Both the position numbers and the translations under genes were made by a program. The notes under the pieces were generated by a model that saw nothing but the letters and a program-made list of their open reading frames with translations, was not told the DNA's origin and did not search any database. 64,000 nt of DNA from a virus (lineage: Duplodnaviria; Caudoviricetes), in the IMG/VR virus record IMGVR_UViG_3300037454_000475, positions 32,001-96,000 of that record; one strand, written 5' to 3'. Shown in pieces: positions 3,152-17,112 of the stretch; within the stretch, counting starts at the first letter, position 1; each line of letters begins with the position of its first letter.

Positions 3152-3227
3152 TGGAGCGGATGATGGGACTCGAACCCACGATATCCTGCTTGGAAGGCAG
3201 GCGCAATAGCCGCTATGCGACATCCGC
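3152..3227 (-). tRNA. tRNA-Gly(TCC), CCA encoded
   Basis: Cloverleaf; CCTGC-CT TCC AA-GCAGG. Confidence 0.95.
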
Positions 3228-3334
3228 ATGGTCGAGGGGCTGCTCGGCGTCACGCCGCCCCCTCGTGAGTGTTCCTTGGTGTCTTACGGATTTACAGCTG
3301 ATTACCGAGGTAGCAAAGCACACTGAACAAGCCG

Positions 3335-3417
3335 CGGAGAGTGGAGGTCTCGAACCCCATACGTTGCCGTACCAACCGCCTTCCAAACGGCGTTGCCGCC
3401 TTGGCAATTCACTCTCC
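3335..3417 (-). tRNA. tRNA-Ser(GGA), 8/4 fold
   Basis: Acceptor GGAGAGTG/CACTCTCC, 4-bp T stem, long variable arm, G73. Confidence 0.85.
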
Positions 3418-3423
3418 ATAATG

Positions 3424-3495
3424 AGCCGCAAGCTGGATTTGAACCAGCGACCTCGTCCTTACCAAGGACGCGTTCCACCCCTGAACTATTACGGC
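3424..3495 (-). tRNA. tRNA-Thr(GGT)
   Basis: CGTCC-TT GGT AA-GGACG. Confidence 0.95.
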
Positions 3496-3656
3496 ATGTT
3501 GGACATCATTAAGAACTCTTTAGAATCCCGCATCCTCCTTTGTTTAAGTTCCTCCAGCCACATTGCAAGCTGTGCATGATCCAATCCGCATTCTTTATTG
3601 GAACATGTCGAAGCAACCTCGTTGGCATGTTGGATGGCTTCATCAAGAGTCATCAT
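3489..3656 (-). CDS. Small phage protein (MMTLDEAIQHANEVA...HAQLAMWLEELK)
   Basis: Resembles a common small phage protein family; stop codon overlaps the 5' end of tRNA-Thr. Confidence 0.7.
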   Translation of the reverse strand: MMTLDEAIQHANEVASTCSNKECGLDHAQLAMWLEELKQRRMRDSKEFLMMSNMP

Positions 3657-3673
3657 ACTGATATATTTATTTG

Positions 3674-3797
3674 TCGAGGCGAGAGGATTCGAACCTCCAA
3701 AACCACTAACGTGGCCCCATGGCTTTCCACTCGAGCAACTATAACCACGGCTCCCGGACCAACCCCGGGCGTGTATAACCAATTTCACTACGCCTCA
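3674..3797 (-). ncRNA. tRNA-like RNA with extra arms
   Basis: Acceptor TGAGGCG/CGCCTCG, D and T arms, three hairpins between them. Confidence 0.7.
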
Positions 3798-3802
3798 ATA
3801 AG

Positions 3803-3878
3803 GGTGAGTAGTCAGGTTCGAACTGACGATCTCCGGATCCACAATCCGGCGCATTGGACCAACTATGCTATACACACC
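3803..3878 (-). tRNA. tRNA-His(GTG)
   Basis: CCGGA-TT GTG GA-TCCGG; G-1:C73. Confidence 0.95.
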
Positions 3879-3885
3879 ATCTGTA

Positions 3886-4000
3886 ATGTCTATCGGGCAT
3901 CCCTCTTACCTTCAGGCCACCCACACCCGTTTGGTTGGACGGGTTGCCCTTGATGGATGGCCGGGGATTCGAACCCCTATTATTAGATTTCGATAAACAT
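3886..4000 (-). ncRNA. Circularly permuted tRNA-like RNA (Y-RNA/YrlA-like arm order)
   Basis: 10-bp terminal stem enclosing T arm, 9-bp acceptor-like helix, then D-like segment. Confidence 0.55.
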
Positions 4001-4002
4001 TG

Positions 4003-4074
4003 TGTTCCCGGGTGGGATCGAACCACCGACCTTCTCCACGTCAAGGAGATGTTCTCCCGCTAAACTACAGGAAC
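4003..4074 (-). tRNA. tRNA-Val(GAC)
   Basis: TCTCC-TT GAC GT-GGAGA. Confidence 0.93.
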
Positions 4075-4234
4075 ATTAGCAGATTTGGTTTAACGTATGC
4101 CGGAGTTCTGCCGGACTCCCACGGATGGGTTCCTCTCTTTTGCGGCTTATCCATCAGCCGTCATACCGGGCATCCTGACTTTCGGTATGCTTTACCCACG
4201 TTTTTACCAGTTATGGACGTTATCAGGTTGGTAG

Positions 4235-4306
4235 TGCTCCCGAGTGGATTTGAACCACTGACCTTCTGCATGTGACGCAGATGTTCTCCCCCTAAACTAC
4301 AGGAGC
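4235..4306 (-). tRNA. tRNA-Val(CAC)
   Basis: TCTGC-GT CAC AT-GCAGA. Confidence 0.92.
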
Positions 4307-4417
4307 ATGTTGCCTCGACACCTTTAAAGAACCAATCAACTATCGCGCGAATGTGATGGACAAGAAACACCCTGCAGCTGGCCGAGGCCTACTCCTCTGC
4401 GTATCGTTGTTCTCTTT

Positions 4418-4495
4418 TGGTGCTCCCGGCAGGATTCGAACCTGCGACCCCCTGAATGTAAATCAGGTGCGCTAAACCGGCTACGCTACGAAAGC
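4418..4495 (-). tRNA. tRNA-Val(TAC), CCA encoded
   Basis: CCTGA-TT TAC AT-TCAGG. Confidence 0.95.
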
Positions 4496-4500
4496 ATATG

Positions 4501-4634
4501 AAGGAACAGACCCTTTTGATACAGGTGCTTATTTGGTCATCTGTAGGACATTTCACTATCGGGCGGCTTATTTAGCACGTGGCCACCCTAACAACCACCA
4601 GCTCCTACAGCTGGTATTCTCCCCTACGGGTTCC
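4501..4634 (-). ncRNA. Structured spacer RNA with pseudoknot potential
   Basis: Closing AGGAAC/GTTCCT; CTGTAGGA/TCCTACAG and GTGCT/AGCAC loop pairings. Confidence 0.5.
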
Positions 4635-4638
4635 TCTG

Positions 4639-4712
4639 TACCGGCGGGTGGACTCGAACCACCGTCTCCTCCTTATGAGAGAGGCGCAAGAAACCACCTC
4701 CGCTACGCCGAT
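4639..4712 (-). tRNA. tRNA-Met/Ile2(CAT)
   Basis: CCTCT-CT CAT AA-GGAGG. Confidence 0.9.
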
Positions 4713-4716
4713 ATTT

Positions 4717-4815
4717 TGTGACCGGCCGGGCTCGAACCGACATCCCCCCAGCTCCTACCTGCTACAGTCGCACAGCGGTCTTACCGGGTCATCTAACCGA
4801 TTGAATCTACGTCAC
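4717..4815 (-). ncRNA. tRNA-like RNA, anticodon loop replaced by ~30-nt hairpin
   Basis: T arm GTCGG-TTCGAGC-CCGGC; acceptor GTGAC/GTCAC; AC stem CCCGG/CTGGG. Confidence 0.7.
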
Positions 4816-4817
4816 TG

Positions 4818-5004
4818 CGGTTCGGCTGGGGATCGAACCCTGCAATCTAACCCTACCATTGAAGAGTGATACTCATGTCCTTTGGTTGCCTACAACCGTA
4901 ACGGCGACTCTATAATCCGGACACTTTCAAAAATTAGTACTCCGCCGGTCACCCCGCGGCAACACCTTCAGTCAGGTTCGCATTTCCGTTTATGCTATCA
5001 AACC
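4818..5004 (-). ncRNA. tRNA scaffold with ~120-nt structured insert in the anticodon loop
   Basis: Acceptor GGTTTG/CGAACC, D stem GCAT/ATGC, AC stem AACCT/GGGTT, T loop TTCGATC. Confidence 0.7.
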
Positions 5005-5014
5005 ATGTTTAGTT

Positions 5015-5788
5015 TTAATTCAAAGGAATATACTTAAAATTACGGACTTTTAACGGTGTATCAAGCCTATTTGGACGAATTTTTGGATCATCGACATTGA
5101 TATCGATAATGAAATCCATCAAATATCCCTTTTGTGGATCTTTCAGGTTATTTGTAAGCATGTTGGTGTATTTCCTTGATACCGTTTTTGTGACAATTCC
5201 GTTGGCTTTGAACGTTATCTTATCCGGACGCCACTCACACTCATACTTGATCCAATTCTCGGTGGGGTCAAGAGGCTGGTCACATTTCGTGACATTCTTG
5301 GATCCGAGATGTTCATGCACCATTTTACGGTTGTTATAGTGTACATTGTATGTAGTACGCCATGACTTTCCGATCCACGGAAAATGGTTGGTGAAGTTTT
5401 GTAGATAATTTCCACCAGTGGTAAGCACCTCCATCACGTCAATCTCCGGAGGCCAATTCCCGGCGCCACTCAACCAACAAGCACAACCAACATTAAGTCC
5501 TTTTGGAATCATCACTTCAATGGAGAATGTGCCGTAATCAAAATGTTGTCTTGTACGTATCAGTGCTCTTTCAATTGTTGGATGATATACCTTACCATTC
5601 CAGTGTTTTACCTCCCTTGGATTTTCACGGTAATACAGGTGAATCTCGCCGTTTGGCATCCTTTTCACTACATCCTCGGAATCGCTATACCATGCATGTG
5701 GATAACTCGAATGAATTATTCTTCCACCATCCATTTCGCATGACCAGTCATATCCGCACCAATTGAATAAGCTCTTTTCCATATACAC
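5015..5788 (-). CDS. Glycoside hydrolase family 16
   Basis: Catalytic motif WPPEIDVME; YGTFSIEV and EWRPDKITF segments. Confidence 0.88.
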   Translation of the reverse strand: MYMEKSLFNWCGYDWSCEMDGGRIIHSSYPHAWYSDSEDVVKRMPNGEIHLYYRENPREVKHWNGKVYHPTIERALIRTRQHFDYGTFSIEVMIPKGLNVGCACWLSGAGNWPPEIDVMEVLTTGGNYLQNFTNHFPWIGKSWRTTYNVHYNNRKMVHEHLGSKNVTKCDQPLDPTENWIKYECEWRPDKITFKANGIVTKTVSRKYTNMLTNNLKDPQKGYLMDFIIDINVDDPKIRPNRLDTPLKVRNFKYIPLN

Positions 5789-5832
5789 AATGTTCTTTTA
5801 TCAAGAATAAGAAAAATGGCTATGGTTTATCA

Positions 5833-5987
5833 AAAAATCAATCCGCATCCAACACAATGCGCGACCATTCGTGTTGAAATTTCCCTTATCATTCGTCAAA
5901 CCTCACGTGCGACCTGACTCATTTACAGTTCCTGAACGCGCCCTTTTTCGCGAGGGCTCAAGGCCGTTGTGGAATGATTTAGATTTT
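5833..5987 (-). ncRNA. Structured spacer RNA with kissing-loop potential
   Basis: Multibranch fold; loops CGCGA and TCGCG are complementary. Confidence 0.5.
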
Positions 5988-6057
5988 GTTCCATACAGGG
6001 GCTCGAACCCATGACCTCCGGCTTACGCCAGCGTGCTGCCAATTACACCACATGAAT
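5988..6057 (-). ncRNA. Anticodon-less tRNA mimic (GTAA tetraloop)
   Basis: Normal D and T arms; CTGGC-GTAA-GCCGG. Confidence 0.75.
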
Positions 6058-6151
6058 TTTACGCCTATTGTTTATTCAGTACTAACCCTGCACGACTTTC
6101 CTTTCAATATCGTCAACGCCATCCTACTACCACGTGCAGGTGGGTTCGGCG

Positions 6152-6233
6152 CGGAGAATTGAGGTATCGATCCCCATACAAATGTACAGCACGCTTTCGA
6201 GACGGCTCCCTTCACCATCAGGGTTAATTCTCC
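6152..6233 (-). tRNA. tRNA-Ser(CGA), 8/4 fold
   Basis: Acceptor GGAGAATT/AATTCTCC; T arm GGGG-ATCGATA-CCTC. Confidence 0.85.
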
Positions 6234-6355
6234 AAATGATATACGTAAAAAACGGAGGATTTTCGATTCCTCACCTCCTCTCCATTGGCTGGGACTCCCG
6301 ATATGCCCCGTTAAGGATTTACTAACTACCTCCGGATTAACTTATTGATCGTGTG

Positions 6356-6436
6356 TACCCCTGGTGGGACTCGAACCCACACTCCGAAGAATTAGATCCT
6401 AAATCTAACGCGTACTGCCAATTTCGCCACAGAGGT
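6356..6436 (-). tRNA. tRNA-Leu(TAG)
   Basis: TTAGA-TT TAG GA-TCTAA; variable arm. Confidence 0.95.
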
Positions 6437-6580
6437 ATTTGAAAGTCCGGTTACAACGCTTACAGCGCTCCTTTGGAATTATCCATTGGTCTGTCACCTA
6501 CAAGACGCTTGGCGACTTGGGGAGGTTCAGGGTTTCTGATTCGTTGCGCTACTACAAACCCTTTTTCGCCGGACATTTTA

Positions 6581-6654
6581 TGGAGCCCAGTGACGGAGTC
6601 GAACCATCCCCAACAGTTTTGCAGACTGCCACCCCCCCGCAGAGCTTACTGGGC
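6581..6654 (-). tRNA. tRNA-Cys(GCA), CCA encoded
   Basis: GCAGT-CT GCA AA-ACTGT; U73. Confidence 0.92.
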
Positions 6655-6659
6655 TTATT

Positions 6660-6860
6660 TGTGGGTTTACAGTACCCACGGACTGTATGTTGCCGGGAGT
6701 CGTATTGAACCGTATTCGGGATTCGTGCACCTACCCAAATTTGTAAAACGGACAGCCATTAAAAATCCTTGAATATGCATCTCCAAGGCAATCGCCGGTA
6801 CGCCGCCGAAACGGGGACACTCCCGTAAGAACCGGTCTATAGCTGTTTTTGCCGACATTT
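6660..6860 (-). ncRNA. Structured spacer RNA ending in an H-type pseudoknot
   Basis: TACAGT/ACTGTA with GTGGGT/ACCCAC; long-range CGGGAGT/ACTCCCG. Confidence 0.5.
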
Positions 6861-6870
6861 ATTAGGCTTG

Positions 6871-6947
6871 AAACTTTAATCGGATTCGAACCGATAATAA
6901 CCCATTGATGCATCCGCGGGGCTGGTTTGCCGTTAGCCTATAAAGTT
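6871..6947 (-). ncRNA. tRNA-like RNA with aberrant anticodon arm
   Basis: Perfect acceptor AACTTTA/TAAAGTT and T arm ATCGG-TTCGAAT-CCGAT. Confidence 0.7.
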
Positions 6948-7042
6948 TTCCTCGTGTCATTTTACGCGTTTTTCTTACCTGTGGAAGAGCCTATACCCAA
7001 ATTGTACGTTATGGGCAGGATATGACACTACTGTACAAGTTT

Positions 7043-7117
7043 GCTGTGTAGGGGGATTCGAACCACCAACCGGCGGCTTTCCGGCCACCAGCTCTACCGT
7101 TGAGCATTACTACACAC
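7043..7117 (-). ncRNA. Anticodon-less tRNA mimic, copy 1
   Basis: TGTGTAG/CTACACA; AC arm GGTGGC-CGGAAA-GCCGCC. Confidence 0.75.
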
Positions 7118-7207
7118 ACTCGTCTACCATACGAGCGGCACATTCAATTTCAACCGGGGCGTATGTCCCGGCCACCGGCTGGTAGTACCGGTAAGAAACC
7201 TTCAATG
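7118..7207 (-). ncRNA. Kissing-loop RNA motif, copy 1
   Basis: Loops CTACCA and TGGTAG; stems covary with copy 2. Confidence 0.7.
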
Positions 7208-7209
7208 CG

Positions 7210-7283
7210 TCATCCCGCGGGGACTCGAACCCACGATTTCAAGAGTGAGAATCTTGTTTCCTAACCTGTTAGAAGACAGGACG
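7210..7283 (-). tRNA. tRNA-Glu(CTC)
   Basis: CAAGA-TT CTC AC-TCTTG. Confidence 0.92.
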
Positions 7284-7294
7284 ATAAATAATTG

Positions 7295-7382
7295 TTGCGG
7301 TCGTGGGAGTCGAACCCACTATCACTCCTCTCATGAAGCGGAGCGTTATCGGCGCGTCACCTTTCCGTTTAACTCCACCGCA
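7295..7382 (-). ncRNA. Aberrant tRNA-like RNA with CAT loop and insert between D and AC arms
   Basis: TGCGGT/ACCGCA; T arm GTGGG-TTCGACT-CCCAC; loop TT CAT GA. Confidence 0.6.
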
Positions 7383-7409
7383 CGGGACGCCTCCCGTAAT
7401 TACGTAATC

Positions 7410-7483
7410 GCTGTGTAGGAGGGCTCGAACCTCAACCGGCCGCGTCCCGCAGCCAGCTCTACCTGTTGAGACTTACTACACAC
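7410..7483 (-). ncRNA. Anticodon-less tRNA mimic, copy 2
   Basis: TGTGTAG/CTACACA; AC arm is an 8-bp stem with a GGA triloop. Confidence 0.75.
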
Positions 7484-7571
7484 ACTCGTCTACCACCGAG
7501 TGGCATTTTCCGGTTTCACCCGGGAACTCCGTCCCGGGGCTGAATGGTAGTTCAGTGAGAAACCTTCAACG
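7484..7571 (-). ncRNA. Kissing-loop RNA motif, copy 2
   Basis: CTGAA-CTACCA-TTCAG and ACTCG-GTGGTAGA-CGAGT. Confidence 0.7.
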
Positions 7572-7573
7572 CG

Positions 7574-7645
7574 TCATCCCGTGGGGGCTCGAACCCCAAT
7601 TCCAAGATCGAAAATCTTGTTTCCTACCTGTTAGAAGACAGGACG
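7574..7645 (-). tRNA. tRNA-Glu(TTC)
   Basis: CAAGA-TT TTC GA-TCTTG. Confidence 0.92.
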
Positions 7646-7754
7646 ATGACTGCCGCGGTTTTGATAAGGTAGGCCCGCGGAGAACCTCATACTACCCCGA
7701 GGCTTCACCAAATCGTGTCAGTTACTTCACTGGAGCACGCCCCCTCGGTTGTTG

Positions 7755-7826
7755 TAGTCGGTACGGGATTCGAACCCATGTGACAAGATTGAAAATCTTG
7801 TATCCTAACCTTTAGATGAACCGACC
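7755..7826 (-). tRNA. tRNA-Glu(TTC)
   Basis: CAAGA-TT TTC AA-TCTTG. Confidence 0.94.
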
Positions 7827-7884
7827 ATATGATTGATCATAATCGACCGTAATAATTTTTCTTCATGGCTTTAATGTTTCTTTG

Positions 7885-7967
7885 TACCCCGAGTGGGATT
7901 CGAACCCACACGCGCAAAGGCAACAGGGCTTAAATCTGTCATGTACTACCAATTTCATCACCGGGGC
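7885..7967 (-). tRNA. tRNA-Leu(TAA)
   Basis: Loop TT TAA GC; long variable arm. Confidence 0.92.
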
Positions 7968-8012
7968 TTATACCTCTATATGTAAAGCGCTTTACATTCC
8001 ACCATCCCGCAC

Positions 8013-8331
8013 AACTCTACAAGGAGCGTCTTTAACCTCTCACTCTTTAATTATCGACTTGTGGTTGCCTGCGGTAACTTCTTTGAGTTTGTTACCCTCA
8101 ATGTGTCCTTTTGCGCTTATCAAATTGCATGACACGTATGATAAATTATTTGACCACCCCATCGAGTATCAAACTCAACTTTTTATAACAGATTGGCTAT
8201 CAAGCATCTCGAGCTACTTTTTAGTTCTCTGTAACCTCCTCTTTCCATGGAAGCCGGTTTGGGGGGATGTAAGGCAGGTCAGGGACGACAGGGACACTGA
8301 CGGTTTAAGAGCCTCACGCTCCCCTGAAGTT
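8013..8331 (-). ncRNA. Candidate ~320-nt structured RNA
   Basis: Long closing helix CAGGGGAGCGT/ACGCTCCTTG plus TCTTAAACC/GGTTAAAGA. Confidence 0.55.
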
Positions 8332-8339
8332 TGACCTTG

Positions 8340-8414
8340 TCGGATAGGCAGGATTCGAACCTGCGACCTCATGATCCCAAATCACGTGTGCTAACCTGAC
8401 TGCACCACTATCCG
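8340..8414 (-). tRNA. tRNA-Pro(TGG)
   Basis: CGTGA-TT TGG GA-TCATG. Confidence 0.95.
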
Positions 8415-8453
8415 GTACCACCGGCTTTTTCCAGGGAAACCGGTTCGAACCCA

Positions 8454-8955
8454 TACGCAACGTCAAGACGGTACCACCCGGGCGTTGTTAGGGAGGTGAT
8501 TCCTCCTCACCCGATCATTGTGAACCCGTAAGTGGGACTCCTTCTCCCATCAAACAGGTGGCTTGCCGAGTTACCAAGCAACGATCGAATCCTCGGAGCT
8601 CCTTAATACTGGCGAGCTGACCAAAAAGCCCCTTGCTACAGGCGGGCCGACCGACTCAACTTCATGTAACTTTTTCAGGGTGTGAGCGAACCCACAGGTT
8701 TATTTCCAGTCCTGTATCTGTCGATAAGGTTTGGCCGGCCGGATTCAGTTCCGGACTCGCGCTCCTTATCAGTTACGGAAGTTTTGCCCCACCGGCCGAA
8801 TATTCGCGGGAACTGGTGTGCTGCCCCGGCATCTCGGCGGGGATCGTTGTTGCGTTCCGGCGTGTGGTCGGCAGGGCTCGAAAAGGATTATTCGGCATCC
8901 CGTTGGCCAAACTGGAACCTATTTGGTCTGTGGGGGTACCATCACGATCTGCATA
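8454..8955 (-). ncRNA. Candidate large (~500 nt) structured RNA
   Basis: GC-rich, no credible ORF; terminal helices TATGCAG/TTGCGTA and GATGGTACC/GGTACCGTC. Confidence 0.6.
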
Positions 8956-8963
8956 ACCTTTTG

Positions 8964-9035
8964 TGGACACATGTGGGATTCGAACCCCTCCGTCTCCGTG
9001 CAAGGGAGAAGTGCTACCGTTACACTACATGGCCC
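8964..9035 (-). tRNA. tRNA-Ala(TGC), atypical acceptor
   Basis: TCTCC-CT TGC AC-GGAGA; G3:U70; bulged U, 8-bp acceptor. Confidence 0.85.
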
Positions 9036-9206
9036 ATTTGAAAAATTGGGTTCTTTTGTCGTCCTCCCGAGGTGTTCCGGAACCTTCATATACCCCTTGG
9101 GATACTGCCCGATTACAGAACTTCGATATACCCACGGCGCCATGGGAACCTGAAGGCTCGTTACGGATCAGGGTTGAACCCAAAACAATCCAAACCGCTT
9201 TTCACG

Positions 9207-9289
9207 TGACCTTGGCCGGACTCGAACCGGCACGGGTTTCCCCATAAGTCCCTCAAACTTACGCGTGCTGCCAATTTCGCCACAAGGCC
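9207..9289 (-). tRNA. tRNA-Leu(GAG)
   Basis: TAAGT-TT GAG GG-ACTTA. Confidence 0.94.
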
Positions 9290-9394
9290 ATACGTGGGAA
9301 CGTGTCCCACTTTCTATCTCTATTTATCTCGTGCTCGGAGTACGGAGCGAGCCCCTGTCGTTAATCACCATCCTTACCGTAAATGGCGATTTAG

Positions 9395-9482
9395 TAGCGG
9401 GAGGAGGATTCGAACCTCCGACCTCCTTTTGGGAAGTACTGGCTTATGAGACCAGCGAGATAGTCCACTTCTCTACCCCGCG
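9395..9482 (-). tRNA. Initiator-like tRNA-Met(CAT) with long variable arm
   Basis: CGCGGGG 5' strand with 1:72 mismatch; variable hairpin ACTTCC-CAAAA-GGAGGT. Confidence 0.85.
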
Positions 9483-9496
9483 ATGTGTTTTTAATG

Positions 9497-9653
9497 TGGC
9501 CCCTCAAGGATTCGAACCTCGTACGCTTTCCAAAGCAGGGGCTCTTTGGAGTTTAATATCGAAAAACTCCTCGGGATCTAAAACGCATGACTTTCACATG
9601 ATAGCCCAAGAGCTCTGTTGGGATATATAATAATCACCAGTCGTTAAGGGGCA
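9497..9653 (-). ncRNA. tRNA-like acceptor/T domain with ~110-nt branched arm and no D stem
   Basis: GCCCCT/AGGGGC; CGAGG-TTCGAAT-CCTTG. Confidence 0.7.
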
Positions 9654-9679
9654 ATTACTCCCTGTAGTTAGGTGAACTG

Positions 9680-9753
9680 TGGTCCCGGGAGGATTCGAAC
9701 CTCCGACCTGCTGATTATGAGTCAGCTGCTCTAACCTGCTGCGCTACAAGACC
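9680..9753 (-). tRNA. tRNA-Ile2/Met(CAT)
   Basis: GCTGA-CT CAT AA-TCAGC; Ile-like acceptor. Confidence 0.92.
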
Positions 9754-9913
9754 GAAGGATAATGTCCTTGTTTTCCGGCGAGAGGAGGCGCTTTGCAAAG
9801 ATTTTTGGACGTAATAACATCCAGTCCGGAGCTCCTCAAGGAACGGTATTATACGGTGCACCGAACGCAGATTTACATGGAATTAACCAATACGGCGTAC
9901 AAGCGACATTATT

Positions 9914-10047
9914 GCGGGGAGAACAGGATTCGAACCCATCTTATTTACGGCCTATGAACTTACTTTACCGGTATTAGCTCTTCCCGGTGTTTCTTTTCAA
10001 ATCCAACCTAACGGATAAAAGCCGGCCTCACGTTAGGAGCATCCCCA
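9914..10047 (-). ncRNA. tRNA-like acceptor/T domain with unrelated interior
   Basis: TGGGGA/TCCCCG; ATGGG-TTCGAAT-CCTGT. Confidence 0.55.
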
Positions 10048-10064
10048 ATATTTGTTTCCGGCAT

Positions 10065-10142
10065 TGGTTGCGGGAACCGGATTCGAACCGGTGTGGAACG
10101 GCTTATGAGACCGTGCTGGAACCATCTCCAGTCTATCCCGCA
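10065..10142 (-). tRNA. tRNA-Met(CAT), CCA encoded
   Basis: ACGGT-CT CAT AA-GCCGT; TGCGGGA/TCCCGCA. Confidence 0.9.
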
Positions 10143-10150
10143 ATAAATAG

Positions 10151-10267
10151 GTGCTTGGGTTGGACTCGCACCAACAACCTTCCGGTCTCATCCGGAGGCT
10201 CTACATAACCGCGGTGGTATTGATCAGATACCTGCTGACATCATGCCCCTATTTGAGCTACCAAGCT
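10151..10267 (-). ncRNA. tRNA-like RNA with ~50-nt D-loop insert and 6-nt anticodon loop
   Basis: D stem GCTC/GAGC; TCCGG-ATGAGA-CCGGA; T loop TGCGAGT. Confidence 0.7.
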
Positions 10268-10790
10268 ACGCATGTGCACTGCGCTTTTGATTGTTTGGTG
10301 TATTAACGCCACACCGGCGTATTGGACGCCGATCAGATGACCGCATCGGCGCGCGGACTCTTGCTGTTAACGCAATAGTTGCAACGACCTTTCATGATTA
10401 GACTTTGCCTTCGTCGTCCCGGCGCCGTCCCTACTGGATCTGTTGGAGTCTGTCCCACTTCCGTTCCGTTCCTGTAAGAGTATCGAACATCCGTGGTAAG
10501 CCGTCTTTCGGGAACCAAATATGTTTATCGCTTCCGGCATTGCATCGGCCCTCTCTTTGTGAATATATGGTCGTCTTTGGGCTTCTTGGCGGATTGGCTG
10601 GATGTTATCGCCTTTTCGGCCACGTGATCTTTCACAGCATCAGCGCCTTTCAATCCTGATGGTTTCCTGTTACATCGGGTGCCTATCATTTCAGCTACCT
10701 TTCATTTCGGCAGGAGTTAATTGAGGGGCGGACACGGGTCGGCCCAGGGCGGCAAAAGCCGCGGAATTACTCCACCCAGTTTAATCACAA
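10268..10790 (-). ncRNA. Candidate large (~520 nt) structured RNA
   Basis: Non-coding interval between tRNA elements, many short stems with purine-rich/GAAA loops. Confidence 0.5.
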
Positions 10791-10867
10791 TGGTGGACAC
10801 AGAAGGGCTTCGAACCCTCGACCTCCTGACTGCCAGTCAGGCGTTCTACCAACTGAACTACTGGCCC
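10791..10867 (-). tRNA. tRNA-Ala(GGC), CCA encoded
   Basis: CCTGA-CT GGC AG-TCAGG; G3:U70; bulged U in acceptor. Confidence 0.92.
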
Positions 10868-10952
10868 ATAACATTCTCGGATGTTTTCTCCTTTATCTTA
10901 TCACAAGACCAATTTCAGGTCAACTACCACTTGCAAATCTAACTCTTTGTTT

Positions 10953-11031
10953 GCGCGCGGGGAGGTTGTCGATCCTCCGTCTTCCGTGAATGCTTTGATA
11001 AACACACTTCGGTTCTTTGTTGAGCTCGCGG
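10953..11031 (-). ncRNA. Degenerate tRNA-like element
   Basis: T-like arm GGAGG-ATCGACAA-CCTCC; D-like GCTC...GAAC. Confidence 0.35.
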
Positions 11032-11187
11032 ATGGCATTTTATGGCTCCAATTCACCGGCGGGGTCATGACTCCCCAATGGCTGTCCGTTATATTTCTAT
11101 GGTTTAATCTTTCAACCTCCGAGGTCGTTCGGCGTTCCTCTGTAGGTTTTTTAATGCGCGCTAACCTACTTAATTATTGTGTGTTTG

Positions 11188-11260
11188 TCGGGTTAGGTGG
11201 GCTCGAACCACCGACCTATCGCGTATCAGGCGAGTGCTCTACCAACTGAGCTACAACCCG
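11188..11260 (-). tRNA. tRNA-Ile(GAT)
   Basis: Loop CT GAT AC; canonical D and T arms. Confidence 0.94.
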
Positions 11261-11534
11261 GTGAGGCGGATGGAATCACTTCTTTCCGCCAATCTCATGG
11301 ATACGACCAATCACTTTCCGTTTATTCGGTACTGTCAGGTGTTGGGTCGATTACTTCCACCACCCTACTGGCAGCGATCTCCTGATTTCAGCATATAGCA
11401 AACCGGTGAGTTTTGGGCCGCTTTCGGCCACGGGTGTGATTTAGTAACGTGAAATCGTATCCGTATATCTTTACCGCCCATTATACAAAGTTCCGTTCAG
11501 GTGGTTAACCATCCCTTCCAGCGATATGTGGCGG

Positions 11535-11573
11535 ATAAGAATCAATCAAATGTCTCCCAATATGTCAAAGAAC
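11535..11573 (-). promoter_or_regulatory. rrn-like leader with boxA (copy 2)
   Basis: GTTCTTTGACATATTGGGAGACATTTGATTGATTCTTAT, identical to 18909-18947. Confidence 0.75.
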
Positions 11574-11610
11574 GTTGTTCTTTGTTGTTGGAACCTTGTT
11601 CCTTCAACAC

Positions 11611-11642
11611 CTATATATAATAAACACCGCTGATTTATTAAC
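11611..11642 (-). promoter_or_regulatory. Putative phage promoter GTTAA-N17-TTATATATAG
   Basis: Exact motif upstream of the boxA leader. Confidence 0.8.
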
Positions 11643-11668
11643 AAGGAAATTGAAAAAAAAATCGCTTG

Positions 11669-11739
11669 AGGCTCTTACTGGACTCGAACCAGTGTCTGTT
11701 GACTACGAAACAACTATTCTACCCCTAAACTAAAAAGCC
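11669..11739 (-). tRNA. tRNA-Thr(CGT)
   Basis: Loop TT CGT AG. Confidence 0.9.
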
Positions 11740-11824
11740 ATGGACGGGGTTTTTGTTATTTTCTCATCGAGTGTTAGCCCCCGAAACTCATAACTCGATA
11801 AAGTTGGGCGCTACCCAACACGCG

Positions 11825-11896
11825 GCGTATGTGCGGTGCTCGAACCCGCCAACAGGAGATTTGGTCCCCTCGCTCGCCATCTTGCGTTACATACTC
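11825..11896 (-). ncRNA. tRNA-like RNA / pseudo-tRNA with 5-nt loop
   Basis: GTATGT/ACATAC; AGGGGA-CCAAA-TCTCCT; T loop TTCGAGC. Confidence 0.6.
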
Positions 11897-11982
11897 ATAT
11901 GCGGTTAATTACTCCGCACGGGTACCCTCTCTTTCTCTTTCAATACCGCGTCCGATATTTACTCATACTCAAGTCAGGTCTG

Positions 11983-12063
11983 TACCCCGAGAGGGACTCG
12001 AACCCTCACCCTTTCGGACTGGGTTTTGAAGCCAGCGCGTCCTGCCAATTTCGCCACCGGGGT
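11983..12063 (-). tRNA. tRNA-Leu(CAA)
   Basis: Loop TT CAA AA; variable arm. Confidence 0.93.
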
Positions 12064-12241
12064 GTAAATAGGATTTCCTCTTATACTACCCATGAGGGAA
12101 ACCCAAAAAGCTAACATGCACGTACACATACGATTACGTGACCCATCGGTGTCCCATATCCATCACCGAAGCGATGCACAGAGGGTGTGAGCAGCTGTAC
12201 GATCCCAAGTACTGACCGGTACTTCGTTGGGCTTTCATGTC

Positions 12242-13201
12242 TTATATCTTCCCGTTAAACGGGTTCGGTATTCCGTAAATTTTGTAGATCAAATGATCAT
12301 TTATATCAAATGGGTTACCATACAACTTCGAGTACCTAAATATGCAATCGTTCTTGTATTTTTCAAACATTTCATCGGTATAGGTAAGTTCCTTGTACTT
12401 CTCCCTAAAATCCATGGCAGCTTTCCAATCAAGATCCCGGATATCCTCAACCGGATCATCCATAACCGTTAACAAACCTTCAAAATAATTGAATGTGGAA
12501 GCTGATGTCAGTATATGTTTACCCATACAGATGTTCTCAAATATGCGAACCACATTTTGTGAAATTGCGGTATCCGATTCCGGGTTATGAGGTACGTCCA
12601 AAATAAATTTGGTGTTGTACACAACATCCTTGATTTCGTTGGGTCTCAATCCTTCGATACAATAAAATGACTTATCAATAAGTTTGATTTCATCAAAATA
12701 TTTTTTTCTCGAACTTGATGCTTGACCAAAAAATCCAAGATTATAATCATAATCCCCGGAATTTCCGATGTGCTCTGATTGATTGTAAAATCTTAATGGC
12801 ATCCACTTGAGCTTGTTCCATTGATTTGGGAGGAGTTCCTTGTAATACTCAAAGGATTCCAGCCACAAAAGCCATATTTCATCAACATCCTGCAACCATT
12901 CATCTTCCATGTACGGCATAACCCAATACGGTGAATGTTCGGTTTCAAGTAATATCAACTTATTGTATCTCGCCTTTATTTCCTTGAGATCGTACAAATT
13001 GATTGGTTGGGTTGGATATGGCTTTATGTCAAACGGAGCTTTTTTCGAATCAAACCGATCAATACATGGCCAATTGAATATGAGTGTCCCTTGTGGTTCG
13101 GTTTCATCATAGTGCTCAAGGATCATATCCCGAACGCTTGTGATATCCGAATTGAAGAATACACTAATATTTTTGCCACGTTGCAAATAGTTGATCTTCA
13201 T
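12242..13201 (-). CDS. Putative glycosyltransferase (YkvP/CgeB-like, GT-B)
   Basis: Start MKINYLQRG; C-terminal FFGQ...SR, KFILDV, NVVRIFENICMG pattern. Confidence 0.6.
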   Translation of the reverse strand: MKINYLQRGKNISVFFNSDITSVRDMILEHYDETEPQGTLIFNWPCIDRFDSKKAPFDIKPYPTQPINLYDLKEIKARYNKLILLETEHSPYWVMPYMEDEWLQDVDEIWLLWLESFEYYKELLPNQWNKLKWMPLRFYNQSEHIGNSGDYDYNLGFFGQASSSRKKYFDEIKLIDKSFYCIEGLRPNEIKDVVYNTKFILDVPHNPESDTAISQNVVRIFENICMGKHILTSASTFNYFEGLLTVMDDPVEDIRDLDWKAAMDFREKYKELTYTDEMFEKYKNDCIFRYSKLYGNPFDINDHLIYKIYGIPNPFNGKI

Positions 13202-13217
13202 ATGTTTGCTTTTTATT

Positions 13218-13288
13218 GCACAACCTGTGAGGAATTGAACCTCAACCCCCGGCCGCGCCGGTGCTCTATACCGTGAGCTACAGGTGTA
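13218..13288 (-). ncRNA. Anticodon-less tRNA mimic (3-nt loop)
   Basis: CCGGC-GCG-GCCGG; canonical D and T arms. Confidence 0.75.
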
Positions 13289-13442
13289 CTTCCGAATCGC
13301 ACGGAATGCGGTTCCTTCAGGAGCCGGTAACTCTGTTTCCACCAGTTGGGTCAGGAACATACCCCCGCCTATTGCTACCAAGACGGCTAATCCCTTCTCT
13401 TTTATATCGCCCGGTAGGGAACGTGCTATCACATGTGAAAAG

Positions 13443-13513
13443 TTGTCCCGTCGGGATTCGAACCCAAAATTACAGATCCAAAATCTGTCGTGTTACCGTT
13501 ACACTACGAGACA
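13443..13513 (-). tRNA. tRNA-Gln(TTG)
   Basis: ACAGA-TT TTG GA-TCTGT; U1-A72. Confidence 0.95.
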
Positions 13514-13626
13514 ATAGTAACCCAACCTACCTCAACTTCTATTTTGCTTCATTGGCATCCTGAACCTCCGGAGAGTGGAACTTAAACCCTTTCACTGGTC
13601 TTTCAACCTTCTATCGGTTGGGTTTG

Positions 13627-13698
13627 TTGTTCTAACTGGATTCGAACCAATTCCTCCTGATCCAGGGTCAGGTGTACTACCGGATATACTATGGAACA
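13627..13698 (-). tRNA. tRNA-Gln(CTG)
   Basis: CCTGA-CC CTG GA-TCAGG (C33). Confidence 0.9.
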
Positions 13699-13740
13699 AT
13701 CAACTTTGGTATAATATATGAAACCTTTACAAGAATTTCG

Positions 13741-14139
13741 TTATTCAACAATATTTATTCGGCAATTGCAGTTCTCATAAGATATCTTACCATCTCCATT
13801 TTCAAGTATGTAATAATAATCATCCTGTGTTATTTCCAACCCTTTGAATCTGCATTGGTTGCCTCTGTGATCAATGACTTGTTTTCCAAGGTTATATTTC
13901 ACATATTCACATATTGGCTTCATATTTCCGCATCCGGATCTTTCGATTTGTGAATCAACAAAATCTTCCGGTTTGGTAAGTTGAAGGCTGTAACCAATAG
14001 TGCTGAAATACGATGGAGTAAATAGTCCCAATCTTGTAAATATGCGGAACCATATACTTTCATACCAATCAAGCATCTGCTTTATGGATTTGAATCGTAT
14101 TGTGTAATGAAATGGTAACCTTAAACGCATATACCGCAT
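13741..14139 (-). CDS. Hypothetical protein
   Basis: 132-aa AT-rich ORF co-oriented with the island. Confidence 0.65.
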   Translation of the reverse strand: MRYMRLRLPFHYTIRFKSIKQMLDWYESIWFRIFTRLGLFTPSYFSTIGYSLQLTKPEDFVDSQIERSGCGNMKPICEYVKYNLGKQVIDHRGNQCRFKGLEITQDDYYYILENGDGKISYENCNCRINIVE

Positions 14140-14156
14140 ATACCATATTTTATTTG

Positions 14157-14231
14157 CCCGAACGAACGGTTACGATCCGTCTATTTTACCGGAGTGACAG
14201 TCCGGTTCCTCACCAAGAGGCCTACGCTCGG
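14157..14231 (-). tRNA. tRNA-Asp(GTC), atypical T loop
   Basis: CCGGA-CT GTC AC-TCCGG; T loop ATCGTAA; G73. Confidence 0.8.
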
Positions 14232-14290
14232 ATAGAACCACGCTTTATTTTTGTCATTGTATGATGAAGCATGGGTGAACATCACATGCG

Positions 14291-14446
14291 TGGGTATGGG
14301 TGGAATTGAACCTTGAACAACGCCGTTACTCCTGTCTTACTTGCCGCGGATTTTCGTACAGTTTCTCAACGCCGTAAACCTAACCCTCTAAATAAGAGGA
14401 ACCTCCCTCACTGGAGGCCCCGCTACCGTTACGGGGTTACATACCC
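14291..14446 (-). ncRNA. tRNA-like RNA with 6-bp D stem, 6-nt AC loop and ~70-nt insert before the T loop
   Basis: GGGTATG/CATACCC; CCCCGT/GCGGGG; CCTCC-AGTGAG-GGAGG. Confidence 0.7.
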
Positions 14447-14452
14447 ATATGT

Positions 14453-14526
14453 TGGCAGGGGTGGATGGAATCGAACCACCAACTACGGTTTTGGAGACCG
14501 GCATTATACCGTTTAACTACACCCCT
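14453..14526 (-). tRNA. tRNA-Trp(CCA), CCA encoded
   Basis: Loop CT CCA AA; G73. Confidence 0.95.
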
Positions 14527-14620
14527 ATACGTGTACCATTCACCATGTTCGAACGGTACCAATGTCACCACAACTCTATTGTTTCACCATTATGTCCGGA
14601 GCGGTGGGAGAAGACACGCG

Positions 14621-14693
14621 TGGGAAGGAGTGGAGTCGAACCACTATCTTCGGATTTTCAGTCCGCCGCATAGACCTGCTTTGCTACCTTCCC
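14621..14693 (-). tRNA. tRNA-Phe(GAA)
   Basis: Loop CT GAA AA. Confidence 0.94.
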
Positions 14694-14700
14694 ATATATG

Positions 14701-14783
14701 CGGAGAGCAGAGGAATCGAACCTCATACGTTGCCGTACACACAATTTAGCAGAATGGTTCCTTGCCTGAAGGATTTACTCTCC
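14701..14783 (-). tRNA. tRNA-Ser(GCT), 8/4 fold
   Basis: GGAGAGTA/TGCTCTCC; GAGG-TTCGATT-CCTC; 5-bp D stem. Confidence 0.85.
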
Positions 14784-14792
14784 ATTAAGAAA

Positions 14793-15071
14793 AAACCGAG
14801 TAAGAATTGATGATCACGAAGACCTCGAATTACATGGCGAGCTACGGACTGGAGAAACGGCGGCTGGTTACGCCGATTGCATTACCACGTAGGGTTTTAC
14901 CTCCTGTTGCGTTGCGCGTATGGCTCCTCACGGACAAGACCCTTTCGGGGTACCAACACTCTTCACGGAGCTGACGGTCTGCCTTCGGCTACCGGCGCCT
15001 ACATGCACGCTTATTCCGGAATTACACGTACACTTACCTCCGACACTACTGGGTGGCCCTATACTCGGTTT
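14793..15071 (-). ncRNA. Candidate ~280-nt structured RNA
   Basis: 10-bp closing stem AAACCGAGTA/TACTCGGTTT; several GNRA-like hairpins. Confidence 0.6.
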
Positions 15072-15089
15072 AACCGAATGAACGGTTTG

Positions 15090-15166
15090 TGGAGCAGATG
15101 ACGGGGTTCGAACCCGCAAACCTCCTGCTTGGCAAGCAGGCTATCTACCAATTGATATACATCTGC
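15090..15166 (-). tRNA. tRNA-Gly(GCC), CCA encoded
   Basis: CCTGC-TT GCC AA-GCAGG. Confidence 0.95.
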
Positions 15167-15351
15167 ATGGATGCAAGTCGCTAACGTTCTCTCGAAACCT
15201 CACTTGCGAACCCGGCCGTGGTTCATGGTTTTGGCTGATCTACCTCCTCACAGCTGGCGCCCGGATTATATGGCAAATCCGGGTTAGCCCCGTTTTACTC
15301 CGCCGGGAAGCACTTATTGTCTCCGGCCCCCGGTCGCTTAACGGTACAGCG

Positions 15352-15433
15352 TTGGAAGGGAGGGATTCGAACCCCCGAACCCAATGGGAGTGGATTTACA
15401 GTCCACCGCGTTTAACCACTTCGCTACCTTCCA
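15352..15433 (-). tRNA. tRNA-Tyr(GTA)
   Basis: GTGGA-CT GTA AA-TCCAC; variable arm. Confidence 0.95.
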
Positions 15434-15576
15434 ATGTTTGGAACTAATGAAGCTGTGTCAACTTTCATTCTTCATCCGAGTTAAAGAATTATCTGTCATT
15501 TAACTAATGTGACCATTGTATTCAAGGCGCCCGGCCACTATCCTCGGTTTTTGTACTTCATGTCATTGTCCCATTG

Positions 15577-15672
15577 TGCCGCCGGTAGGGCTCGAACCTA
15601 CTTACTGCTAAAGTCCACTACGAAAATTTGTTAAAGCAGATCGGTTTTACAGACCGGTTCCGTTACGTCGGC
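15577..15672 (-). ncRNA. D-armless tRNA-Tyr(GTA)-like RNA with ~40-nt variable arm
   Basis: Only TAACGGA between acceptor and AC arm; loop CT GTA AA; T arm GTAGG/CCTAC. Confidence 0.75.
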
Positions 15673-15680
15673 ATTATAAT

Positions 15681-15812
15681 AACTCCCATATTACTTGGCT
15701 GTATACCCTATAGGAACGTGCGTTGTTTGGAGTCGAACCAAATTCAGTAACAGCATCACTTGACAAATGCTTCGCGCACTACCTTTCCAGTTTATACAGC
15801 ATGAAAGGAATT
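15681..15812 (-). ncRNA. Long hairpin RNA with embedded T arm
   Basis: GCTGTATA/TATACAGC, GTGCG/CGCAC, TTTGG-TTCGACT-CCAAA. Confidence 0.55.
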
Positions 15813-15813
15813 G

Positions 15814-15885
15814 AGCCGATGGAGGGATTCGAACCCCCGACCAACTGATTACAAAACAGTAGCGCTACCACTGCGCCACATCGGC
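15814..15885 (-). tRNA. tRNA-Thr(TGT)
   Basis: Loop TT TGT AA. Confidence 0.94.
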
Positions 15886-15892
15886 TTATCTG

Positions 15893-15966
15893 TCTCCCTG
15901 GAGGGACTCGAACCCCCAACCTTATGATCCGTAGTCATGCGCTCTATCCAATTGGGCTACAGGGAG
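15893..15966 (-). tRNA. tRNA-Arg(ACG)
   Basis: Loop CT ACG GA; A20. Confidence 0.94.
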
Positions 15967-16054
15967 GAGTTTGAAGAGTTACTACGCTACCCTTCGAAGC
16001 TGTTCCAACGGTGCCTTATCAGGCAGCGATGGCCATTTTTGATCTATTGCCGTT

Positions 16055-16140
16055 TGGCGGAGAATTGAGGTATCGATCCCCATACAGAATGTACAGCACG
16101 TTTTCAAGACGGCTCCCCTCACCATCAGGGTTAATTCTCC
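16055..16140 (-). tRNA. tRNA-Ser(TGA), 8/4 fold, CCA encoded
   Basis: Paralog of 6152-6233; loop CT TGA AA. Confidence 0.87.
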
Positions 16141-16142
16141 AA

Positions 16143-16540
16143 TGGAGCCGCTTTCGAGTGATCCCGGACACTACCCCGGCGGGCGCGGCATACCCATATG
16201 TGTTTGTGCGATTGTATCCTATAAAAGGTGGGTGAGAACTACGCCCTCACCCGTGGCTGTGCTTCGGTGCCTAACTTTAGGCAGCGATAGCCATTTCAGT
16301 ACGTGCGCCAGTTATTGCGCGGACACCATCTCTTTTGTTCCTTCGGCCGCTGTCAAAACCAAACACCCCCATATGAGAAGGTTTATACGATACCTACAAA
16401 CGTTTGGGGACACCGTATGGCATCGATCCACCACCGATTTTTACGAAATCGGAAACGTCTTTAATTGGCGAAAGAGTGGAGGTGACGGGAGTCGAACCCG
16501 TGTCCAAACGGATTATCTAACAAAATACAAACGATTGTGC
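16143..16540 (-). ncRNA. ssrA: Circularly permuted (two-piece) tmRNA; tag (A)GARTEMAIAA
   Basis: Acceptor piece ...GGACACGGGTTCGACTCCCGTCACCTCCA (ends 16477) precedes GGGGGTGTTTGGTTTTGAC (starts 16370); G3:U70; ATAACT then tag ORF 16309-16277. Confidence 0.9.
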
Positions 16541-16544
16541 CATG

Positions 16545-16618
16545 CGGTGTTGAAGGGGCTCGAACCCTCGACCTCCGCCGTGACAGGGCGGCATTCTAAC
16601 CAGCTGAACTACAACACC
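16545..16618 (-). tRNA. tRNA-Asp(GTC)
   Basis: CCGCC-CT GTC AC-GGCGG. Confidence 0.96.
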
Positions 16619-16626
16619 ATATAGAA

Positions 16627-16719
16627 ATCCAACTCAAAAATCCGTAGACGTGGGGGTGAAAAAGGAAAGGAGGTGACCCACAAGCCGTTCGTTCGGCATC
16701 GGATTAAAACCTGTTGGAT
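16627..16719 (-). ncRNA. Structured small RNA with anti-Shine-Dalgarno loop
   Basis: ATCCAAC/GTTGGAT, AATCCG/CGGATT, GTGGG/CCCAC enclosing TCACCTCCTTTCC. Confidence 0.6.
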
Positions 16720-16741
16720 ACTGCGGACGCAGTGGTTTTTG

Positions 16742-16814
16742 CGGGATCAGAAGGAATCGAACCTTCAACCTACGGATTAACAGTCCGGTGCTCTACCGAT
16801 TGAGCTATGAACCC
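16742..16814 (-). tRNA. tRNA-Asn(GTT)
   Basis: Loop CT GTT AA; G73. Confidence 0.94.
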
Positions 16815-16874
16815 ATATTTTGCAGATTTTATTGTCAGCTGGTAACGTCTGCAAACCTTACTGACAACCTTTCG

Positions 16875-16948
16875 CGGGGGAGGTGGGGATCGAACCCACG
16901 ACCATGTGCTTAACGGGCACCCGCTACGACCAACCGAGCTCCTCCCCC
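16875..16948 (-). tRNA. tRNA-Asn(GTT), atypical (G8, C33)
   Basis: Loop CC GTT AA. Confidence 0.85.
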
Positions 16949-16959
16949 ATTATTAAAAG

Positions 16960-17032: not shown

Positions 17033-17112
17033 ATGATGATCGGATATTGTAGCATTAGGTACAAGTGCACCCTGAGGCATGTTTCACCTCGGATCTCGGC
17101 ATATCCGATTTG

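Follow-up and report, generated by a model that had tools for sequence, protein, structure and literature searches.

Introduction

Serine transfer RNAs (tRNAs) with an acceptor stem of 8 base pairs (bp) and a T stem of 4 bp, rather than the canonical 7 and 5, were described as the (8/4) tRNA-Ser class in 2017, phages being included among the sources (Mukai et al., Nucleic Acids Res, PMC5389517). Seryl-tRNA synthetase (SerRS) serylates tRNAs of 8/5, 9/4 and 8/4 architecture, and 8/4 allo-tRNAs have inserted serine in E. coli (PMC5389517; PMC7609411). Here we analyse four genes of this kind, tRNA-Ser(GGA), tRNA-Ser(CGA), tRNA-Ser(GCU) and tRNA-Ser(UGA), in the tRNA island of the IMG/VR viral contig IMGVR_UViG_3300037454_000475. 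The window, to which all coordinates refer unless another locus is named, is a stretch of 64,000 nucleotides (nt) comprising bases 32001-96000 of this 105,290-bp contig. An original prediction made for this window had stated that 8/4 tRNA-Ser and allo-tRNAs were already known and that SerRS ignores the anticodon, which is correct, the class having been published with phage members (PMC5389517). All four genes have the 8/4 fold, and their sequence features suggest that they are probably working, phage-encoded serine isoacceptors of the published class.

Four serine tRNA genes with an 8/4 fold

Unconstrained minimum free energy (MFE) folds of all four genes contain an 8-bp acceptor stem, an AA linker, D and anticodon arms, a long variable arm and a 4-bp T stem that abuts the acceptor, confirming the 8-bp acceptor, 4-bp T stem, AA linker and G73 that had been predicted for each of them; forcing a 7/5 fold yields structures that are 1.7-3.8 kcal/mol less stable. 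All four are encoded on the minus strand and have a variable-arm stem of 4-5 bp. The 83-nt tRNA-Ser(GGA) occupies 3335-3417, with G73 at 3335 and without an encoded CCA. Its acceptor stem pairs 3417-3410 with 3343-3336 and is followed by the AA linker, a 4-bp D stem with a 7-nt loop containing GG, a regular 5-bp anticodon stem (anticodon at 3384-3382), a variable arm with a 5-bp stem and a GCAA loop, and a T stem (3358-3355 with 3347-3344) that carries the T loop UUCGAGA. tRNA-Ser(CGA), 82 nt at 6152-6233 with G73 at 6152 and again no encoded CCA, has the acceptor GGAGAAUU/AAUUCUCC, the AA linker, a CCCU/AGGG D stem with an 8-nt loop, an anticodon (6199-6197) on a stem with a bulged U, and the T loop AUCGAUA, in which position 54 is A.

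The 83-nt tRNA-Ser(GCU) (14701-14783, G73 at 14701, no encoded CCA) combines the acceptor GGAGAGUA/UGCUCUCC and the AA linker with a UCCU/AGGA D stem and the T loop UUCGAUU. Its 18-nt anticodon arm (anticodon at 14750-14748) is weak, with a U-U mismatch and a bulged U, and its MFE structure retains the 8-bp acceptor and 4-bp T stem. tRNA-Ser(UGA), 83 nt at 16058-16140, has the same body as tRNA-Ser(CGA), with the same AUCGAUA T loop and a U bulging from the anticodon stem; its anticodon is at 16106-16104. It is followed by an encoded CCA at 16055-16057, which accounts for the start at 16055 assigned to it originally and is absent from the other three genes. The AUCGAUA T loop and a bulged anticodon stem had been attributed to two genes, and both features do occur together in tRNA-Ser(CGA) and tRNA-Ser(UGA), but the tRNA-Ser(GCU) stem is irregular as well, so irregular anticodon stems are found in three of the four.

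The choice between 8/4 and 7/5 turns on whether the base immediately 3' of the 4-bp T stem (position 65) pairs with position 8 or with position 49. Among the four paralogues the 8:65 pair is G:C in tRNA-Ser(GGA), A:U in tRNA-Ser(GCU) and U:A in tRNA-Ser(CGA) and tRNA-Ser(UGA), and position 49 is U in every gene, so that a 49:65 pair would read U-C in GGA and U-U in GCU and could form only in UGA and CGA.

The same question can be put to a much larger family. An 18-mer from the T arm matches 41 IMG/VR contigs, and an anchor-based parse on this motif finds all eight acceptor pairs in 22 of 22 distinct sequences. We built a covariance model (R1) from a 17-sequence subset of 26 sequences with a hand-written 8/4 structure, and this model matches 71 genes in viral loci, 42 of them distinct. 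Across these 42 relatives the eighth acceptor pair is UA in 23, AU in 13, GC in 5 and unpaired in 1; the rival 49:65 pair is UA in 23 and unpaired in 19, with no two-sided change, and in 39 of 42 U49 takes part instead in a G-U pair at the base of the variable-arm stem. Of all cells, 95.6% pair, compared with 72% in shuffles and 40-49% for slid partners. The eighth acceptor pair covaries and 49:65 does not, which supports the 8/4 structure and rejects the 7/5 alternative.

Standard models behave in keeping with this. The Rfam tRNA model (RF00005) matches none of the four genes at E<=0.001, and for three of them the best Rfam match is the tRNA-Sec model, which has an 8-bp acceptor, at scores below its cut-off of 47 bits (33.7 for UGA, 28.7 for GGA and 24.9 for GCU); tRNA-Ser(CGA) is listed by no Rfam model at E<=10. 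ARAGORN labels all four as tRNA-Ser when its threshold is relaxed. R1 assigns 85.9 bits to UGA and 84.3 to CGA, both of which were in its training set, and 69.6 to GGA and 59.2 to GCU, with E-values for the four ranging from 1e-18 to 4e-12.

Serine identity and a complete decoding set

Each of the four genes is of class II by its variable arm, has G73, and pairs G1-G2-A3 with U70-C71-C72. In each, the 7-nt anticodon loop contains U33 and A37, the D loop contains GG, and the T loop contains U55-C56-G57-A58. Their anticodons, GGA, CGA, UGA and GCU, form the standard bacterial set for the six serine codons, bearing out the original expectation of a complete set: between them they cover all six. 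Serine makes up 6.0% of codons in 42 long open reading frames (ORFs) of the contig, and all six of its codons are used. The anticodon is UGA, CGA, GGA or GCU in 71 of the 71 R1 matches in viral loci, which sets this family apart from the allo-tRNAs with their scattered anticodons.

The genomic setting points the same way. The tRNA island (3152-18793, all on the minus strand) contains 38 canonical 7/5 tRNAs for 19 amino acids and a permuted transfer-messenger RNA (tmRNA) at ~16186-16566, as called by ARAGORN and Rfam; with the serine genes it numbers roughly 45 genes. Both standard ARAGORN and the Rfam tRNA model leave the window, and indeed the entire contig, without a single tRNA-Ser call. 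The 41 standard ARAGORN calls on the 105-kb contig represent 19 amino acids, serine being the sole gap, and the four serine genes occupy gaps between the called genes of the island. The 8/4 frame is restricted to serine among the 42 island tRNAs: the other 38 all have the 49:65 pair and 35 of them have U8, and the island's tRNA-His is a canonical 7/5 molecule with an encoded G-1 opposite C73. Because the R1 E-values lie between 1e-18 and 4e-12, the anticodons are exactly the four expected for serine and serine is the only amino acid otherwise missing, the 8/4 fold of these genes goes beyond chance.

Several points weigh against reading the four genes as a working 8/4 set. CheckV puts the completeness of the contig at about 58%, and the missing part of the genome could hold a canonical tRNA-Ser. 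Considered alone, UGA and CGA can also be drawn as 7/5 tRNAs with a 3-nt UAA linker and a U49:A65 pair, and for these two genes the choice of 8/4 rests on the family covariation and ~1.7 kcal/mol. The covariation alignment was itself fitted to the 8/4 model, and 41 of the viral loci were gathered through an 18-mer in which the U preceding the T stem (U49) is invariant; the three decisive columns are pinned by indel-free neighbours, and further matches in the same loci that the 18-mer did not select behave alike. Finally, the anticodon stems are irregular in three of the four genes, that of GCU being unformed in the MFE structure, and this may entail partial loss of function.

Other features of the island

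Besides the serine genes, the island holds several RNAs of unusual form. The tmRNA (16186-16566, minus strand) is of the permuted two-piece type (RF04321, 63.1 bits), ends ~46 nt upstream of tRNA-Ser(UGA), and has the ARAGORN-predicted tag GARTEMAIAA. A tRNA at 9394-9482 (minus strand; 88-89 nt, RF00005 46.6 bits, base 1 unpaired in the fold) joins a CAU anticodon to a class II-type variable arm with a 6-bp stem and a 5-nt loop; an anticodon of Met/Ile2 type on a class II body is unusual. Among the genuine tRNAs, and likewise on the minus strand, lie tRNA-like RNAs at 7410-7482, 7294-7382, 4718-4803 and 4819-4900, the first of which sets a 7-bp acceptor-like stem on a long hairpin with a 3-nt loop and has no anticodon loop. 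Low-threshold ARAGORN calls of "Ser" or "SeC" at 4718-4803, 4819-4900 and 7410-7482 were rejected, as the folds are not those of decoding tRNAs. The tRNA-Asp(GUC) at 14156-14231 (minus strand) is a canonical 7/5 tRNA that also has A54 (T loop AUCGUAA), as do the two serine tRNAs with the AUCGAUA loop.

Protein-coding content gives little further context. Pfam and PHROGs searches of the in-island ORFs returned no matches except for a GH16-like fold, and neither a CCA-adding enzyme nor a class II synthetase core was found on the available contig. A megablast search with 3.5 kb of the island against 50,697 GenBank phages recovered a single 63-nt tRNA-Asp match and no close isolate. The in-island ORF at 12242-13432, used as a protein query, reached two loci, with similarity confined to the first 52-57 residues. 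Two related phage contigs carry a tRNA with the amber-reading anticodon CUA (L050:10146-10215 and L051:10146-10214) just after a stretch that resembles the N-terminus of this ORF, which may hint at stop-codon recoding in relatives; no such tRNA is called in the window. The OmpA-like ORF at 19413-20468 recovered nothing from IMG/VR when used as a single query and one locus when used as a profile, and its homologues on long ENA and Logan contigs do not lie beside tRNA islands.

Complete 8/4 sets in other genomes

Complete sets of serine tRNAs in the 8/4 frame are not unique to this phage. The 110-kb contig G158 of a related phage, reached through a short similarity inside the island, has five 8/4 serine genes (UGA, CGA, two GGA and GCU), and no canonical serine gene was found anywhere along it. 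Three Leu-anticodon tRNAs of this contig (UAG, GAG and CAA; L050:12087-12161, 12753-12827 and 14679-14753) are only 75 nt long and lack a long variable arm, which is atypical for bacterial-type tRNA-Leu. Many other phage arrays mix 8/4 with clear 7/5 serine tRNAs, at times with the same anticodon, and in some a 7/5 and an 8/4 tRNA-Ser(UGA) are adjacent.

We extended the comparison to bacterial assemblies with a 16-mer scan combined with R1. The scan gave at least 120 matches, of which 80 loci were listed, most being chance matches in GC-rich genomes; 4 of the 80 loci listed contain real 8/4 serine genes. Two of the assemblies concerned, metagenome-assembled genomes of rumen Clostridia, each have one 8/4 tRNA with an AGA anticodon, in large tRNA arrays beside canonical tRNA-Ser. 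These copies (L069:7730-7815 and L066:7348-7433) thus have A34, and one of them has C33; the same arrays include a tRNA-Leu(AAG), and wobble-inosine use may be expanded there.

A Ruegeria sp. assembly contains four tandem 8/4 genes (GCU, UGA, GGA and CGA; L122:1839-2190 / L189:10840-11190), each with an encoded CCA. This block stands at the edge of a prophage, with a tRNA-Pro(CGG) on one side and, on the other, genes with a GH108 lysozyme domain, a phage tail-collar domain and BRO/KilAC antirepressor domains; in the 20 kb examined, the prophage showed no tRNA cargo besides this block. Elsewhere, the Ruegeria genome encodes the same four anticodons in four canonical 7/5 tRNA-Ser genes. In a sample of 151 Bacteroidota genomes there were four matches at E<=1e-6, all of them 7/5. 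One tRNA-Ser(UGA) from the Bacteroidota genome G113 (L195:1500-1586) is a 7/5 molecule whose D arm resembles that of tRNA-Sec, having a 6-bp stem and a 4-nt loop; with its 3-nt CAA linker and A73, the architecture looks intermediate.

Proposed origin and working of the set

The UGA and CGA genes are 95% identical, the remaining pairs of paralogues share 65-70% identity, and the variable arms of GGA and GCU are identical. When anticodons are masked, a rough tree groups UCN copies by genome and GCU copies across phages; that it was built on ~85 nt and carries no support values tells against leaning on it. The likeliest origin suggested by these sequences is a single 8/4 ancestor, tolerated by SerRS, followed by duplication and by anticodon switching, which the indifference of SerRS to the anticodon permits. 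The shared frame would then reflect descent rather than four separate conversions, in a phage lineage without a 7/5 serine tRNA.

In the infected cell, the four tRNAs would be transcribed together with the minus-strand island and trimmed by host enzymes, and three of them would require CCA addition by the host. Because the available contig encodes neither SerRS nor a CCA-adding enzyme, both charging and CCA addition would have to come from the host. Host SerRS would recognise the long variable arm, G73 and the G1-C72/G2-C71/A3-U70 end while ignoring the anticodon. EF-Tu, the ribosome and the end-processing enzymes should also accept the 8/4 molecules, because the stacked acceptor/T helix still measures 12 bp (8+4 in place of 7+5), with the junction shifted by 1 bp. 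Once charged, the four tRNAs would jointly read all six serine codons. Given their identity marks and the activity of 8/4 allo-tRNAs in E. coli, serylation of the four and their use in translation can be inferred by analogy.

Alternative explanations

The original prediction held that a complete serine set in the 8/4 frame may evade tRNA-Ser-targeting toxins while remaining chargeable, a proposal for which the present evidence offers no support. In general form it becomes a rival reading with a counter-defence role: the 8/4 frame, possibly with the A54 T loop and the bulged stems, would make the phage copies poor targets of a host or rival-element factor acting against canonical tRNA-Ser, while SerRS would still charge them and translation would continue during infection. 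We consider this unlikely, while noting that several observations are in its favour. Evasion of tRNA-targeting defences by phage tRNAs is established for other amino acids (PMC10264068, PMC11555353, PMC11464382). Complete four-anticodon 8/4 sets recur on mobile elements (this phage, G158 and the Ruegeria prophage), and in the 20-kb stretch examined the Ruegeria prophage carries serine tRNAs only, in a genome that already has the full canonical set, which codon compensation does not predict. An 8/4 tRNA-Ser(UGA) next to a 7/5 counterpart is what one would expect of a backup copy, and serine alone is affected among the 42 island tRNAs.

Set against these observations, no tRNA-Ser-directed defence is known or was found for the host of this phage, many phages retain 7/5 serine tRNAs beside their 8/4 ones, and the 8/4 serine tRNAs of rumen Clostridia sit in seemingly chromosomal arrays, so the frame is not limited to mobile elements. 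The known escapes act through changes in the anticodon loop or arm, not through the acceptor/T frame. MenT3, moreover, recognises the variable arm, which is kept here, and strongly modifies tRNA-Sec with its 8-bp acceptor; the published data on MenT-type toxins thus count against evasion by the 8/4 frame (PMC11541572). The recurrence of mobile 8/4 sets is circumstantial evidence, compatible with a private or backup serine set. The broader proposal that such sets are a recurrent mobile-element module for private serine decoding, chargeable yet escaping a putative factor of the host or a competitor that disables canonical tRNA-Ser as a class, is one we would advance only as a long shot.

Host mimicry, in which 8/4 serine tRNAs would belong to the host's own repertoire and the phage would have captured its copies there or adapted them to that host, appears decidedly improbable. 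(8/4) tRNA-Ser has been reported in proteobacteria and in bovine rumen Clostridia (PMC5389517), and the 8/4 AGA tRNAs of our two rumen Clostridia genomes do lie in native-looking arrays. However, in each bacterial genome checked the 8/4 genes accompany canonical 7/5 tRNA-Ser and never replace it, the Ruegeria set is prophage cargo, and the OmpA-like gene of our contig suggests a Gram-negative host rather than Clostridia. Bacteroidota is the sole phylum with even a weak host hint, and its 151 sampled genomes yielded only the four 7/5 matches. That hint is a single Por_Secre_tail gene adjoining a 55%-identical OmpA homologue on another contig; no sorting domain of the type IX secretion system was found on the contig analysed here.

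We regard it as very improbable that the four genes are non-decoding tRNA-like RNAs or decaying pseudogenes, akin to the tRNA-shaped elements without anticodon loops that the island also contains. The irregular anticodon stems of three of the genes would fit such decay, but the 7-nt loops are intact with U33 and A37, the anticodons are exactly the four for serine and remain serine anticodons throughout the 71 family matches, the stems covary, and an otherwise complete island would be left without serine only. Scarcely credible is the idea that these are ordinary 7/5 serine tRNAs whose T stem begins with a mismatch and whose linker is one base longer, the 8/4 drawing being an artefact, for although UGA and CGA allow U49:A65 with U8 present and relaxed ARAGORN is able to call all four, 49:65 would be U-C in GGA and U-U in GCU, the family has three Watson-Crick types at 8:65 with zero covariation at 49:65, none of the four is recognised by the Rfam tRNA model and three have the tRNA-Sec model, with its 8-bp acceptor, as their best match, and forced 7/5 folds are of lower stability.

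Implications for phage tRNA complements

Reading the four genes as working 8/4 isoacceptors has consequences for annotation. Standard tRNA finders overlook such genes, so that large phages are annotated as being without serine tRNAs despite carrying a complete set, and the omission distorts analyses of codon compensation and of tRNA complements in phage genomes. A whole isoacceptor family appears able to run on a non-standard frame, in line with the idea that what matters to SerRS, EF-Tu and the ribosome is the 12-bp arm together with the variable arm, and not the 7/5 split. The recurrence of full 8/4 sets on mobile elements, where the hosts have canonical sets of their own, also offers a handle on whether tRNA architecture, beyond anticodon loops, is contested between phages and tRNA-targeting defences.

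Comparison with known systems

One comparison is with phage tRNAs that evade host defences directed at tRNA, such as the T5 tRNAs against PARIS or retron effectors (PMC10264068, PMC11464382, PMC11555353). These too are phage-borne replacement tRNAs that differ structurally from those of the host, and the analogy is one of function only; those escape tRNAs have anticodon-arm changes backed by experimental proof, whereas the difference here lies in the acceptor/T frame and has no known attacker.

Canonical 7/5 tRNA-Ser shares with the four genes the class II body, G73, G2:C71, A3:U70, the four anticodons and presumably the same SerRS. Unlike it, the four genes lack an unpaired U8, their variable arm runs into the T stem with no spacer base, and the junction lies 1 bp further from the 3' end; the 49:65 combinations of U-C and U-U in two of them, and the lack of any RF00005 match or standard ARAGORN call, place them outside the canonical type.

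Bacterial tRNA-Sec (RF01852) resembles them in its 8-bp acceptor, 2-nt linker, long variable arm, G73 and charging by SerRS, but it has an 8/5 architecture (13 bp), a UCA anticodon, a 6-bp D stem and a requirement for SelA and SelB. The four genes instead have a 4-bp T stem and sense serine anticodons, and score 24.9-33.7 bits against a cut-off of 47 for this family, with one gene unmatched.

The (8/4) allo-tRNAs have the acceptor/T frame and the serine identity marks in common with our genes (PMC5389517; PMC7609411). Theirs are, however, mostly non-serine anticodons, combined with a tRNA-Sec-like D arm of long stem and tetraloop, in contrast to the 4-bp D stem and 7-8-nt GG-containing loop of the four window genes. 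A 6-bp D stem with a 4-nt loop does occur in many phage relatives and in the UGA copy of G158.

The closest described system is the (8/4) tRNA-Ser class itself. Like its members, the four genes lie in phage tRNA clusters and combine an 8-bp acceptor with a 4-bp T stem (12 bp), G73, a long variable arm and serine anticodons (PMC5389517). They agree with the class in every feature that can be tested from sequence (fold, variable arm, G73 where the class allows G73 or U73, serine anticodon), and close relatives that have the AUCGAUA T arm as well occur on dozens of IMG/VR contigs. One difference is that tRNA-His is 7/5 here, with a G-1:C73 pair, whereas in the alpha-proteobacterial phages of the 2017 study the 8/4 tRNA-Ser is accompanied by an 8/4 tRNA-His (PMC5389517). 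The other is that, here and in G158, the contig's serine isoacceptors are 8/4 without exception; complete 8/4 sets go unmentioned in the main text of the original description (PMC5389517). What may be new is a large phage whose serine set is complete and entirely 8/4 while the rest of its tRNA island is canonical, an arrangement common to at least one relative and one prophage.

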